This document shows positions 7,332 to 9,533 of a stretch of 64,000 nucleotides of DNA, in pieces. The number at the start of each line of letters is the position of its first letter. Position 1 is the stretch's first letter. Origin of the DNA: a virus (lineage: Duplodnaviria > Caudoviricetes); the IMG/VR virus record IMGVR_UViG_3300021399_000102, positions 96,001 to 160,000 of that record; one strand, 5' to 3'. The position numbers were made by a program, and so were the translations under genes. The notes beneath the pieces are model-generated. The model was given only the letters and a program-made list of their open reading frames with translations, had not been told where the DNA came from and did not search any database.

Positions 7332-7598
7332 TCAATTTGCAAGCCGTTCCTTTACGCCATCCCAATAGCCCTTGTGGAAGCTCAAGTATTCCTTTGAGCA
7401 ACCATCCTTGATTGCGATTACACGTTCAACCGCGAGGCCGTGAACAGCGTCCTGGAGGTTGTTGAGAGCATAGCACATTGGCTTGGGAAGGTGGTGGTAG
7501 TCTCCCGCAACGATGGAATGGGTGAGGTTGAATGCCCATTCAATGACCTTCTTCTCGTTCTCAGTCAATCGTTCAACCTTTGGCAATTCAGATTTCAT
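7332..7598 (-). CDS. Hypothetical protein
   Basis: GGAG SD, ATGA overlap. Confidence 0.55.
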   Translation of the reverse strand: MKSELPKVERLTENEKKVIEWAFNLTHSIVAGDYHHLPKPMCYALNNLQDAVHGLAVERVIAIKDGCSKEYLSFHKGYWDGVKERLAN

Positions 7599-8107
7599 TT
7601 TGTTTCTCCCTTGTTGTTCAACACATCTATTATACGCCTCATATCCTCAATCGTAAAGCCGTATCTCCTGTCGGTTTTCACAATCTTGTCTTTGTCAATA
7701 TATGGCTCTATGTCCACAATCTCGTCATCCACAACGCAATATGCGTCCACTTCTGGATGCTCGGCAAGCCATTGTTTGATCTCCATGCCCCTTCTGCCCT
7801 TTTTGTCGTAGCCAGTCTCGCCGGCAAATACTTCCTCCCTTGGACAGCGAAGTTTCTCTGAGAGAATGTCCCTCCAATTCCTGTCGGGTTGATATGGAGC
7901 GTAGTTTGTGTGGTGTCTCCAAGAGGATGATACCACAATCTTGCAATTGGTGTTGGCTATGATGAACCGAAGTCTGGCAACAAGTTCTGGGTTGAAGCCA
8001 TAACGCCACTCGTCAAGGTCAATCCATTCGTGACTGTCAGATGGTGTTGGGTACATGCAATTCAGAACCCCATCTATGTCCAGGAATAGAACCTTCATGT
8101 CCATCAT
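7595..8107 (-). CDS. HAD-family phosphatase (Swiss-Army-knife RNA-repair type)
   Basis: FLDIDGVLN, IVVSSSWR, RGMEIKQWL, VVDD motifs. Confidence 0.85.
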   Translation of the reverse strand: MMDMKVLFLDIDGVLNCMYPTPSDSHEWIDLDEWRYGFNPELVARLRFIIANTNCKIVVSSSWRHHTNYAPYQPDRNWRDILSEKLRCPREEVFAGETGYDKKGRRGMEIKQWLAEHPEVDAYCVVDDEIVDIEPYIDKDKIVKTDRRYGFTIEDMRRIIDVLNNKGETK

Positions 8108-8874
8108 GCCACTTTCCTGTACACAGGCTTGTGTCCAGGCTTGAGCGAGACCATCTTGCTCTTGCCGAGATGGCGTTTGGGGATGTGCGACTCTCCCTTC
8201 TGAGTGGTGTAGAGCAGTTCGGTTCTGATGCCAAGTTCGCAGCAAATGTCGTTGATTGCCGTCTTTTCCTTTATCTTCCCATGCACCACGGTGATGTAGT
8301 TCTTCTTCTTCAGCTCCACAAGCATCTTGCGCATTTCCTTCATGTCGATGTTCGTGAGGGAGTCTATCACAATCTCTGTGTGGGGTTTCGTGGCGAAGTC
8401 CTCACCCATATACTCGTAGGAATACCGCTCGGAGTTCACGATGTACATGTTCTGATTCCGTCCATTGATCTTTCCATTGGATACATCGCCCTTCTTGCCA
8501 TTCCTCGGTCCTTCCTTCCAAAGGATGGAGTTCGCAAAATGGTGGGCAAGGGATTCGTGGGCGGTTCTGATGAACACCTTGTATCCCTTGTTCACATACA
8601 TCTTGCACAAAGCCTCCATGAACTTCGTGCCAAGTCCAAGCCCCTGGAAGTCAGGAAGTATGACCAGACGGTGAATTGCCTTGCCGAAGTTCAACGAGCC
8701 GTTGGGATATGGTCGGACCGCGCAGAATCCAACATATGCGTCATTCCACTTTAGAACCCAACATTCTGCGGCGATGAGAAGGTCGTGGCTCAGATAGTGA
8801 TGCGGAGCAAATATTTTCCAGACCTCTCGCTTCCGCTCCGGCTCGTCAATTCGCTCGAAGGAGAGGTCGATGCT
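8104..8874 (-). CDS. GNAT acetyltransferase moiety, probably reached by -1 frameshift from the upstream ATPase
   Basis: WKIFAPHHYLSHDL and IHRLVILPDFQGLGLG motifs; the frame has no ATG/GTG/TTG before the first motif. Confidence 0.75.
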   Translation of the reverse strand, partial: SIDLSFERIDEPERKREVWKIFAPHHYLSHDLLIAAECWVLKWNDAYVGFCAVRPYPNGSLNFGKAIHRLVILPDFQGLGLGTKFMEALCKMYVNKGYKVFIRTAHESLAHHFANSILWKEGPRNGKKGDVSNGKINGRNQNMYIVNSERYSYEYMGEDFATKPHTEIVIDSLTNIDMKEMRKMLVELKKKNYITVVHGKIKEKTAINDICCELGIRTELLYTTQKGESHIPKRHLGKSKMVSLKPGHKPVYRKVA

Positions 8875-9533
8875 TTTCCCAGGCAGAACCCCCGAAGGTC
8901 ATATATCTTTTCGGTGTTCAAGTCGATGAGGATGTCTGGCTTGAGCATTGGAATGATGTCGTAGTGGCAACCACAAAAGACCACATTCTTGAGCCCGTTC
9001 TTTCGGATGTACTTCTGAATGCTGTTGCTTGCGCTCATCGCACATTCCCTGTTGACCACGCTCGTGTATTCGTCAATCATGACCTTGGACTCAAGGTTTA
9101 GCGCAAGATCAGCTCGGAATCCCTCGCCTGTGGAGAGGACATTCCTTGGGCGGCACCACTTGGGGATTGAACTCAACCCAACAGCATTGAGTGTCGCCTT
9201 GCCCTTCTTGGGGTTCTCAGGGAAGTTGGAAATGATGGCCTTGGAATTGTCGTAGACCTTCTTGGGGAAGTGCCATCCTGCCTTCTCAAATGCCTTGAGG
9301 AATGTGGACTTTCCAGCTCCAGAAGGGCCGACAATCTGAATGATGTTCACATCCAGATTCAGAATCTCCTGTGGAATGACAAAGGGATATACCTTCGATT
9401 CCCCAGTGAACTCGTAGTCAAACGCCTTTTTGACAAGGTTGATTCCCTCGTCAATCGGCACTTTGCTCACCAATGGCACGTCACTTCGCTTCAATTTGCA
9501 AAGTACGGGCGCGTTCTCCCAACTTTCGCTCAT
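8790..9533 (-). CDS. ABC-type ATPase (ABC-ATPase/GNAT DNA-modification family)
   Basis: GPSGAGKS Walker A, LSTGE signature, IDEYTSVVNR Walker B, CHYDI. Confidence 0.85.
   Translation of the reverse strand: MSESWENAPVLCKLKRSDVPLVSKVPIDEGINLVKKAFDYEFTGESKVYPFVIPQEILNLDVNIIQIVGPSGAGKSTFLKAFEKAGWHFPKKVYDNSKAIISNFPENPKKGKATLNAVGLSSIPKWCRPRNVLSTGEGFRADLALNLESKVMIDEYTSVVNRECAMSASNSIQKYIRKNGLKNVVFCGCHYDIIPMLKPDILIDLNTEKIYDLRGFCLGKASTSPSSELTSRSGSERSGKYLLRITI
8821..8880 (-). promoter_or_regulatory. Putative -1 programmed ribosomal frameshift signal (G_GGA_AAA, 5-nt spacer, stem-loop)
   Basis: Slippery heptamer 8880-8874 in the ATPase frame; stem GACCTCTC/GAGAGGTC extended by CTTC/GAAG. Confidence 0.7.

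Follow-up and report, generated by a model that had tools for sequence, protein, structure and literature searches.

In the window, a 64,000-nucleotide stretch of phage DNA, one gene on the minus strand is very probably decoded in two ways through a programmed −1 ribosomal frameshift, by which it would give both a short ABC-type ATPase and a long ATPase-acetyltransferase. This reading of the sequence is supported because the family to which the gene belongs is normally fused, the break between its two frames is real, the slippery heptamer and the hairpin at the break are conserved, and the −1 frame, which opens without a start codon, is under selection. A programmed −1 shift yielding an ABC-ATPase/GNAT fusion had been proposed in an initial annotation of the same DNA, and comparison with relatives makes it the best-supported reading.

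Results

Two Overlapping Reading Frames

The ATPase is encoded by ORF1 (8790–9533, minus strand; 247 amino acids), which defines frame 0 and in which residues 1–215 make up the ATPase domain. The residues FCLGK are followed by a tail of 27 amino acids, described earlier as low-information and found here to be without homology, which ends at a TGA (8792–8790, minus strand). The acetyltransferase (GNAT) frame is −1 relative to the ATPase frame. Upstream it is shut by a TGA at 8899–8901 (minus strand), and it is open from 8898, six codons before the heptamer. Its portion of the fusion (8107–8874, minus strand; 256 amino acids) ends at the TGA 8106–8104, and consists of a GNAT domain (residues 1–165) and a C-terminal domain of 90 amino acids. 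A −1 slip at the heptamer would join 220 and 256 residues to a fusion of 476 amino acids, the length originally estimated, with the junction ...FCLGK-SIDLSFER..., while the −1 frame itself reads PSGVLPGK-SIDLSFER around the heptamer.

That only a few codons separate the opening of the −1 frame from the heptamer, with no start ahead of it, as the initial annotation had it, is borne out: no ATG, GTG or TTG occurs in this frame for 69 codons after its opening. The first canonical start is a TTG at 8692–8694 (minus strand), corresponding to an ORF at 8104–8694. Initiation there would give a GNAT part that lacks its first 60 residues, i.e., its N-terminal strands and helices, as placed by a modelled fused homolog. 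The next gene, HAD_SAK_2 phosphatase-like (7598–8107, minus strand; Pfam PF18143, E 6.8e-28), has an ATG that overlaps the GNAT stop (ATGA), which is context and lies outside the frameshift signal.

The stops relevant to the ATPase/GNAT gene are all TGA, and TAG is absent from the gene. When TAG is counted as a sense codon, the window's longest stop-to-stop frame increases from 646 to 1704 amino acids, and this fits the earlier remark that a frameshift would be a second recoding layer in this phage. Reading TGA as sense was also considered and rejected, since all six frames then open alike, and neither a start nor an in-frame fusion results here.

Both Halves Match One Protein Family

The profile phrog_11143 matches ORF1 with E 1.3e-45 (residues 24–210 on profile positions 8–191), and it matches the −1 frame at profile positions 211–352, collinear with the match to ORF1. 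When the two halves are aligned by hhalign to 59 fused homologs, ORF1 residues 14–215 fall on profile positions 23–226 (probability 100) and −1 frame residues 15–164 on positions 240–388. As judged from these profiles, the phrog_11143 family is normally a single fused protein, and both domains of the present gene match one profile in order. Compared with the fused family, the halves are collinear and all motifs are intact, but here they occupy two frames and carry the additional 90-amino-acid C-terminal domain.

The Walker A motif GPSGAGKST (residues 69–77; 9303–9329), the ABC signature LSTGE (9123–9137), the Walker B motif VMIDE (9069–9083) and the H-loop His190 (CH190; 8964–8966), all on the minus strand, coincide with columns that do not vary in alignment A2 of the fused family. 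The Pfam ABC_tran score of ORF1 is 22 bits, under the 25-bit cut-off. By its motifs, and by the fold of a modelled homolog, ORF1 has the features expected of an ABC ATPase nucleotide-binding domain. The −1 frame has the features expected of a GNAT acyltransferase: its Pfam Acetyltransf_1 score is 40.3 bits against a cut-off of 20.7, and it contains a motif A of the form Q/RxxGxG/A, the predicted acyl-CoA pyrophosphate-binding loop RLVILPDFQGLGLG (8629–8670, minus strand). The invariant GNAT columns of alignment A1 are R69, L70, V71, L73, P74, D75, Q77, G78, G80 and G82, and the columns that match GNAT motif A are likewise invariant in alignment A2. The C-terminal domain (residues 166–256; 8107–8379, minus strand; alignment A1) is a domain without an assigned role that occurs also in Thomasclavelia phage TR-TP1; its match to HTH_46 (E 0.002) is below cut-off and gives only a weak hint of a winged helix.

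In an AlphaFold model of the fused homolog L037 (pLDDT 85), the break site maps to the loop of 10 residues that links the ABC fold to the first strand of the GNAT. A fold search with this model relates the ABC part to the nucleotide-binding domains of Wzt, MalK and MetN and the GNAT part to Naa50-type GNATs; it confirmed both folds and gave no functional lead. Searches of PDB sequences with the gene returned remote ABC and GNAT matches only.

The Putative Frameshift Signal

The heptamer, the stem and a nearby GGGGG run all lie, relative to the ATPase frame, where the initial annotation had placed them. The heptamer G_GGA_AAA (8874–8880, minus strand) is in the X_XXY_YYZ register, with frame-0 codons CTG GGA AAA, and its letters G (8880), GGA (8879–8877) and AAA (8876–8874) are inside the overlap of the two frames. 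After a 5-nt spacer, GCAUC (8869–8873, minus strand), begins the predicted stimulatory hairpin (8821–8868, minus strand), which consists of 8 bp, a bulge and 4 bp (12 bp in all) with a loop of about 23 nt. Its arms are GACCUCUC-CUUC and GAAG-c-GAGAGGUC, its minimum free energy is −20.8 kcal/mol, and its end adjoins a conserved Trp codon (8820–8818, minus strand). The z-score of the hairpin is only −1.45, 17 of 200 shuffled sequences folding as well, and an in-frame heptamer within the 35-codon overlap is expected by chance with a probability that we estimate at roughly 13%. By themselves, the heptamer and the hairpin of the window are weak signals, and the hairpin is not exceptional; it is because of the comparison with relatives that the signal rises above chance.

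IS1 and IS3 elements use G_GGA_AAA and A_AAA_AAA alongside other heptamers, and the tetramers U_UUU and C_CCC shift when a stimulator is present (PMC4066793). Early studies in E. coli, as described in the introduction of the same paper, rated G_GGA_AAA as inefficient (PMC4066793), a point against the frameshift reading. In the PRFect paper, "five" and "fivetwo" are among the backward (−1) slippery motif classes (PMC10885494), and G5 and G5A2 fit these two classes on our reading of the class names.

The GGGGG run (8889–8893, minus strand) lies 8 nt upstream of the heptamer, as noted originally, but a part in the signal finds no support in the comparison: the run is kept in L004, reads CGAGGG in L005 and is missing in L010 and L011. 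It encodes a conserved Arg-Gly and probably consists of just these codons, outside the frameshift signal. An SD-like enhancer and an alternative slip site were both rejected as roles for the run, since it is not conserved and Arg-Gly coding explains it.

The Frame Break in Independent Assemblies

The heptamer at 8874–8880 is crossed by contigs from four runs in three studies (the source run of the window and three others, two of these from other studies) and none has an indel there, the comparison being one of assembled contigs rather than raw reads, so that rare length variants would not show. The identical split is found in the separately assembled IMG/VR contigs L004, L005/L006, L010 and L011. 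From these assemblies, which bear on the earlier suggestion to check for a sequencing indel, the frame break is judged to be real DNA.

Conservation and Selection among Close Relatives

Four close jumbo-phage relatives of 414–434 kb (L004, L005/L006, L010 and L011) retain the split. The window, L004 and L005 have the heptamer G_GGA_AAA, and at exactly its position L010 and L011 have A_AAA_AAA instead; the spacer length and the stem are the same in all five sequences of this clade. The initial annotation had asked for just this conservation in split homologs, and in the close clade it holds for five of five sequences. All 12 consensus stem pairs are unchanged across the five sequences, save the innermost, which is broken in one. 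When the five sequences are aligned by codons over about 1.4 kb, the two stem arms, with 16 and 11 nt, exceed every other unchanged stretch of nucleotides in length, while only 32% of the codons of conserved residues are identical overall. The synonymous rate dS is 0.16–0.49 in the region of overlap and hairpin, compared with about 0.8–1.3 elsewhere, and this reduction could partly reflect the two overlapping frames. There is no covariation in the window's stem among the five sequences, where the pairs are invariant, and the stems of other clades occupy different alignment columns, so that a joint covariation test is impossible.

Relative to L004, the closest relative, dN/dS is 0.10 for the GNAT and C-terminal domains and 0.04 for codons 29–60 of the −1 frame, a segment downstream of the frame-0 stop and upstream of the first start codon. 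By these ratios (0.04–0.10), the GNAT portion is under purifying selection, including where it has no start codon. A blastn search with the gene found no match in 50,697 phage records, which means that only protein-level relatives exist there.

Split and Fused Loci across the Family

The wider survey consists of the 80 best matches per collection, i.e., the best 160 of roughly 850 stretches in two scans; the sample is biased toward relatives of the window's gene, and its counts are not phylogenetically independent. The 166 loci comprise 126 fused, 36 with a −1 split and 4 with a +1 split, and the offset is −1 in 36 of the 40 split loci. A slippery motif is present in 24 of 26 distinct −1 splits, nearly always 44–59 nt before the conserved Trp codon, and absent from the other two (L069 and L093). 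When a 19-nt window at that place is searched, a heptamer or a run of five is found in 21 of 26 split loci compared with 7 of 107 fused loci. The type of motif varies by clade (G_GGA_AAA, A_AAA_AAA, G_GGG_GAR, U_UUU_N, A9–10 and T7), and so do the hairpins, which begin 3–7 nt downstream of the slip motifs. L031 and L086 have a 13-bp stem with a compensatory change from A-U to C-G, L012 has a 14-bp stem (z −6.75) and L013 one of 12 bp, while a few split clades (L001 and L016) have no stable hairpin. The mean folding z-score at the junction is −1.6 in split versus +0.08 in fused loci (Mann-Whitney p 7e-5).

A quick IQ-TREE phylogeny requires at least four changes for the split and puts its origins at four or more; in one clade, whose 14 distinct rows diverge deeply, every row is split. 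Relatives with the −1 split include Lactococcus phage P335, Streptococcus prophages, and Oenococcus and Thomasclavelia phages. Two genes are annotated in all five of the cultured phage records with the split that were examined, with the labels "ABC transporter" and either a truncated "hypothetical protein" or "N-acetyltransferase", and as a consequence the full enzyme is missing from the protein sets of these five records. Our literature searches for a frameshift in the ABC-ATPase/GNAT family found nothing relevant.

Discussion

Proposed Decoding by a −1 Slip

Consider a ribosome that translates the ATPase domain in frame 0 and reaches G_GGA_AAA, with the hairpin 5 nt downstream. A fraction of such ribosomes would slip back by one base, the tRNA-Gly re-pairing from GGA to GGG and the tRNA-Lys from AAA to AAA, and would proceed at AGC (Ser) into the GNAT frame to make the long fusion. 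Ribosomes that do not slip would end 27 codons further on and release the 247-residue ATPase with a meaningless tail. The features that point to such a mechanism appear together in these sequences: an in-register heptamer, a stable hairpin 5 nt downstream, a selected frame without a start and conservation above chance. That ribosomes make the slip, that the short and the long product each have a function and that the ratio between them is important are inferences, as is the view of the initial annotation that the shift sets this ratio.

Alternative Explanations

The same recoding could take place at another site or by another mechanism, through a single-tRNA slip at the G5 run (CGG_GGG_U, 8893–8889, minus strand) or through stuttering of RNA polymerase. 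The −1 frame is already open at G5, a G5 run is the inferred slip site in a clade of Firmicutes phages, and transcriptional slippage is plausible in other clades, where the site is A9–A10 or T7 and where fused members have an in-frame A10 at the same linker. However, G5 is missing in L005, L010 and L011, which retain the position of the heptamer and its 5-nt distance to the stem; RNA polymerase slips on runs of about 8–9 or more, far longer than G3A4, and the contigs are without length variation. This variant is improbable, and about equally so is a model with two separate proteins, in which the GNAT would start alone, from a non-canonical start or by reinitiation, and bind the ATPase non-covalently with no frameshift involved. 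Such a model agrees with the two-gene annotation of every examined cultured record with the split, with the presence of some ATG, GTG or TTG between frame opening and conserved Trp in 13 of 26 split loci, and with the work of Antonov et al., who count the frame transitions of ABC-transporter clusters as cases of translational coupling (PMC3711429). The remaining 13 of 26 loci have no start before the Trp, and in the window the start-free stretch of 69 codons, ended by a start that would remove 60 GNAT residues, speaks against separate initiation. So do the conserved −1 frame residues, which begin directly at the slippery site, and separate proteins would leave unexplained both the enrichment of motifs and hairpins at that spot and the predominance of the −1 offset (36 of 40).

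It is very unlikely that the gene is decaying after a genuine 1-nt deletion which killed the fusion, so that GNAT is no longer made. Isolated broken copies do occur in the family, namely L024 (a +1 split, sister of the fused L022), L069 and L093 (both without a slippery motif) and L114/L116, but the split persists with both frames intact in a clade with branches up to 0.8 changes per site, the catalytic motifs of the present gene are all intact, and dN/dS downstream of the break is 0.04–0.10 against the closest relative. As for an indel introduced into a homopolymer by sequencing or assembly, which would hide a gene that is truly in frame, there are short G and A runs at the site, and the window's source run is among those compared; yet in three other runs, of which two belong to other studies, the contigs over the site have no indel, and four separately assembled relatives share the −1 split with the Sanger-era phage P335, which leaves such an error with a negligible chance.

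Likeness to Known Systems

The programmed −1 shift proposed here has several counterparts. In E. coli, dnaX makes tau and gamma through a −1 shift at A_AAA_AAG with a hairpin, while Thermus uses transcriptional slippage on A9. As in dnaX, an ATPase gene would give two products from one slip site, with ribosomal or transcriptional solutions depending on the lineage (a heptamer with a hairpin here, A9, A10 and T runs elsewhere in the present family), but the slip in dnaX leads to the shorter product and here it would lead to the longer one. TmcA/NAT10, in which a helicase-type ATPase is joined to a GNAT, makes N4-acetylcytidine in RNA; it shares with the present enzyme the coupling of a P-loop ATPase to a GNAT with a nucleobase as substrate (here a prediction), but its ATPase is not of the ABC type, and the likeness is an analogy only. 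The tail assembly chaperone G/GT of lambda shifts at G_GGA_AAG, which differs from the heptamer of the window only in the last base, and in both cases a conserved phage −1 shift extends a protein C-terminally. G/GT is a structural-assembly gene and near-universal in long-tailed phages, whereas ABC-GNAT is an enzyme and split in some lineages; a phage cluster of tail-chaperone-type frameshifts is described in PMC3711429. The orfA-orfB transposase of IS3/IS911 elements shifts −1 at A_AAA_AAG, A_AAA_AAA or G_GGA_AAA with a 3′ hairpin or pseudoknot (PMC4066793), and the parallel extends to the short frame-0 protein, the X_XXY_YYZ slip before a structure that gives a fusion with a catalytic domain, and the heptamers themselves. 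The proteins are unrelated, and unlike in IS3/IS911 the phage ABC-GNAT family is commonly unsplit and acquired the split several times.

Function and Significance

The neighbours of the gene in its relatives are a methylase or ParB-like gene upstream, a DNA polymerase that is adjacent or fused (in L018 to a family-A polymerase), an exonuclease and HNH; these DNA-related neighbours fit a predicted acylation of DNA bases. In Streptococcus phage MismyG the GNAT is followed by a gene with an ASCH domain, a fold linked with ac4C. A search of the 201-kb phage record, 48% complete, gave no ParB_N gene. The enzyme is predicted to be an ATP-dependent acyltransferase that acts on a DNA base, from the family that PMC7824862, citing Iyer et al. 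2013, describes as "GNAT coupled with an ABC ATPase"; the DNA-modification role that the initial annotation predicted for it is this published prediction.

When ABC ATPases act, they do so as dimers, and mixed dimers of the short and the long product are conceivable. Tentatively, and with more doubt than confidence, the split may be seen as an adaptation, evolved repeatedly, by which the enzyme's stoichiometry is fixed, giving an active particle in which ATPase heads outnumber the GNAT (or GNAT-polymerase) arms. If ABC dimers are obligatory and fewer GNAT arms are needed, it would follow that lineages converged at least four times on recoding at the same interdomain loop, by whatever motif was at hand (heptamer and hairpin, runs of G5, C5 or U5, or long runs of A or T). 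If this is true, the family would be a natural system for how frameshift signals arise and are exchanged.

To our knowledge, few programmed frameshifts are well supported apart from those of tail-chaperone, IS and dnaX genes. Here an enzyme gene is split, in jumbo phages, in temperate phages that infect lactic acid bacteria and streptococci, and in prophages from several phyla, and its many different slippery motifs and hairpins, all placed at a single homologous position, constitute a natural series for the evolution of frameshift signals. Since Lactococcus phage P335, the Streptococcus prophages and the Oenococcus and Thomasclavelia phages have hosts in culture, bench tests are feasible for the recoding as well as for the predicted DNA acylation.

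Two Overlapping Frames and Their Predicted Domains

On the minus strand, positions 9533-8104 hold two overlapping frames. Frame 0 (ORF1, 9533-8790, 247 aa) contains a P-loop and matches ABC-type ATPases, and its C-terminus reads ...DLRGFCLGK, followed by 27 residues without homology and a TGA. The -1 frame, closed upstream by a TGA at 8901-8899, reads PSGVLPGK-SIDLSFER...WKIFAPHHYL and ends at the TGA 8106-8104; counted from where this frame opens, the first ATG, GTG or TTG codon comes only after 69 codons (TTG at 8694). All on this same strand, a GGGGG run occupies 8893-8889, the heptamer G_GGA_AAA lies at 8880-8874 in the X_XXY_YYZ register of frame 0, and a hairpin (8868-8821; 8 bp, a bulge and 4 bp; -20.8 kcal/mol) starts 5 nt past the heptamer. 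Every feature of the initial annotation, i.e., the frames, heptamer, hairpin, GGGGG run and absent start codon, is present in the sequence. Taken alone these signals are not compelling: a heptamer is no unusual find in 35 codons of overlap, and the hairpin has a z-score of only -1.45. TAG is absent from the gene, where the relevant stops are all TGA; reading TAG as sense lengthens the longest open frame of the window from 646 to 1704 aa.

In Pfam searches, the -1 frame gives a GNAT domain with 40.3 bits at a cut-off of 20.7, and frame 0 gives only sub-threshold P-loop/ABC matches. Decisive for what the two frames are predicted to encode is that a single PHROGs family, phrog_11143 (357 positions), matches both of them, with its positions 8-191 aligned to frame 0 and 211-352 to the -1 frame. 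When placed on a profile of 59 fused homologs, which have both domains in one frame, ORF1 residues 14-215 fall on positions 23-226 and residues 15-164 of the -1 frame on positions 240-388, so that the break is confined to some 13 positions of the profile. In the AlphaFold model of one fused homolog, L037 (pLDDT 85, pTM 0.81), a loop of 10 residues connects an ABC nucleotide-binding fold to the GNAT fold that follows, and it is at this interdomain loop that the slippery site of the window's gene lies. Walker A, the signature motif, Walker B, the H-loop His and GNAT motif A are intact, and the frame-0 tail past FCLGK has no counterpart within the phrog_11143 family. Behind the GNAT domain lies a 90-aa C-terminal domain (8107-8379, minus strand), common to the window's gene and the Thomasclavelia phage and absent in the streptococcal and lactococcal phages, for which there is only a sub-threshold winged-helix hint.

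Presence of the Break in the DNA

The initial annotation had named a sequencing indel among the points to be checked. In contigs of public sequencing runs, those from four runs in three studies of animal gut metagenomes span 8874-8880, and none has an indel there. The only nearby indels lie inside the hairpin loop (8834-8843) in one sheep-gut run; in its contigs the loop shows a deletion of 3 nt as well as paired +1/-1 indels, with hairpin arms and heptamer free of indels. The same -1 split also occurs in separately assembled IMG/VR contigs of 414-434-kb phages, with GNAT parts 51-86% identical to that of the window. The break is real DNA.

Conservation and Selection among Close Relatives

The expectation that heptamer and stem are kept in split homologs is borne out in the close clade, where position, spacer and stem are the same in all five genes (that of the window and those of the jumbo-phage relatives L004, L005, L010 and L011). 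The heptamer context is CTG_GGA_AAA in the window, L004 and L005 and CTA_AAA_AAA, at the identical position, in L010 and L011; in each case a 5-nt spacer is followed by the stem GACCUCUCC...GAGAGGUC. The two stem arms (16 and 11 nt) are the longest invariant nucleotide runs in the five-gene codon alignment of about 1.4 kb, over the whole of which the five genes share the same codon at only 32% of the conserved residues. Because the stem is invariant, these five sequences display no covariation in it. The upstream G5 run is not conserved in this clade.

Over codons 1-28 of the -1 frame, synonymous divergence is 0.16-0.49, compared with roughly 0.8-1.3 in the remaining gene. Comparison of the window with L004 (dS about 0.8) gives a dN/dS of 0.06 in the ATPase part, 0.10 in the GNAT and C-terminal part, and 0.04 in a stretch of the -1 frame, codons 29-60, that is past the frame-0 stop and still ahead of any canonical start codon. 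On these sequence comparisons, the downstream -1 frame is translated.

Recurrence of the Split in the Family

A tblastn search with the GNAT part matched 47 cultured phage records, and of the six in which the junction was read, five show the -1 split of the window's gene at the equivalent domain joint: Thomasclavelia phage TR-TP1, Streptococcus phages Javan141 and MismyG, Lactococcus phage P335 (orf24/orf25) and Oenococcus phage Vinitor-27. In all five, the frame-0 stop falls inside the codons of the HHYL motif, and the split is annotated as two genes. In the sixth, Tenacibaculum phage pT24, the family's cited example, ATPase and GNAT start in one frame and an in-frame TGA interrupts the GNAT part past FTWNGVPV (L167:1420-1620), for which a nonsense mutation, TGA recoding and read-through of the stop are possible explanations; this record annotates two 'ABC transporter ATP-binding' genes.

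Two scans added 160 loci, being the best 80 matches per collection and therefore biased toward relatives of the window; together with the six cultured records, the 166 classified loci comprise 126 fused, 36 -1 split and 4 +1 split genes. A slippery motif (G_GGA_AAA, A_AAA_AAA, [CU]UG_GGG_GAR, U_UUU_N, A9-A10 or T7) is found at the linker in 24 of 26 distinct -1 splits, mostly 44-59 nt ahead of a conserved Trp codon (8820-8818 in the window), and half of the 26 (13) have no canonical start codon ahead of this Trp. Within the 19-nt stretch of the linker at this distance, a heptamer or 5-run in the ATPase frame occurs in 21/26 split versus 7/107 fused loci. The U_UUU_N loci of streptococcal and lactococcal phages have a C5 run nearby. 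The +1 splits and the two motif-less -1 splits (L069, L093) have the look of ordinary errors or decay, being either located elsewhere or sister to fused genes that are intact. At L069:1873-2000 the -1 split is at the same linker, with AGGAGG (Arg-Arg codons) just upstream of it; this locus is either a decayed copy or has an unrecognised shift site.

When 65 distinct rows (ATPase plus GNAT) are placed on a quick maximum-likelihood tree, at least four changes between fused and split states are required. The window's clade, 14 rows with branch lengths up to 0.8, takes in jumbo-phage contigs and the Thomasclavelia phage and is split throughout. By this tree, the streptococcal/lactococcal pair is a separate origin of the split; L069 is a singleton amid fused genes, and L082 adjoins fused genes with an in-frame A10 run at the same linker.

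Other clades have hairpins of their own: a 13-bp stem, 3 nt past A7, in which a compensatory change has turned one A-U pair into C-G (L031/L086), a perfect 14-bp stem with z of -6.75 (L012), a 12-bp stem after the slippery site (L013), and a 9-bp stem seen by eye, not folded (L087). In the streptococcal/lactococcal clade, CCCCCAC pairs with GUGGGGG 5-6 nt past a conserved U5 run, with a GCCCAC/GUGGGC pairing, by eye, in L131. When 70-nt junction windows are folded against shuffles, the mean z is -1.6 for split (n = 18) and +0.08 for fused loci (n = 40), with a Mann-Whitney p of 7e-5 that is descriptive only, because the sequences are related to one another. A few split lineages (L001, L016) have no stable structure at the junction.

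Mechanism

The best reading of the window's gene, on comparative grounds, is canonical -1 ribosomal frameshifting. At G_GGA_AAA the tRNAs would re-pair from GGA to GGG and from AAA to AAA, a slip that the hairpin would stimulate, so that a shift would give a 476-aa ATPase/GNAT fusion and frame-0 termination the 247-aa ATPase. IS1/IS3 elements contain both G_GGA_AAA and A_AAA_AAA, among other heptamers, and with a stimulator present frameshifting also takes place at U_UUU and C_CCC tetramers (PMC4066793). The backward slippery motif classes of PRFect, from its annotated, mainly phage frameshift set, include 'five' and 'fivetwo' (PMC10885494), which by our reading G5 and G5A2 fit. Transcriptional slippage is an equally good candidate in the A9/A10/T7 clades, but in the window the runs are too short for it. 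Fused loci L042, L071 and L084 carry an in-frame A10 run in the linker, where the A9/A10 run of their split relatives (L082, L094, L139, L146, L155) is in the -1 arrangement; slippage may give two products in either state. Frame transitions in ABC-transporter gene clusters have been classed by Antonov et al. as translational coupling (PMC3711429).

Gene Context and Implications

The phrog_11143 family is the 'GNAT coupled with an ABC ATPase' for which Iyer et al. (2013), as cited in PMC7824862, predicted transfer of an acyl group onto a DNA base. The gene context in relatives is compatible with such a DNA-directed role. Phages of lactic acid bacteria and streptococci have, upstream of the ATPase, a methylase or ParB/Srx-like gene that extends over its start. 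This overlap is exactly 22 nt in all of the streptococcal, lactococcal and Oenococcus phages concerned (L002:1854-1875, L003:1896-1917, L168:890-911, L169:902-923) and is a second conserved overlap of the module. ParB_N has no match in the phage record (201.6 kb, 48% complete). In TR-TP1 the gene is flanked by exonuclease, DNA polymerase and HNH genes, the polymerase being the next, separate gene; in L018 (2459-5266), L019, L020 and L026 the GNAT frame stays open into a family-A DNA polymerase that includes a 3'-5' exonuclease domain (Pfam), and the frameshift product there would be an ATPase-GNAT-polymerase. Directly 3' of the GNAT gene of MismyG lies an ASCH-domain gene (L169:2018-2386), and as ASCH proteins are linked with N4-acetylcytidine, this neighbor offers a lead that the predicted enzyme acetylates cytosine. 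In the window, the next gene (7598-8107, minus strand) encodes a phosphatase-like HAD_SAK_2 ('Swiss Army Knife RNA repair') protein and is probably coupled translationally to the frameshift product only, since its ATG overlaps the GNAT stop (ATGA).

No description of a frameshift in the ABC-ATPase/GNAT family was found in the literature searched. The type of mechanism is itself well known, and the value of the case lies in its convergence, its testability and the many records in which the split form is entered as two genes. The window contributes an example of the classical form, heptamer plus hairpin, from a jumbo phage with recoded TAG, and the analysis links the split form to cultured phages of Gram-positive bacteria.
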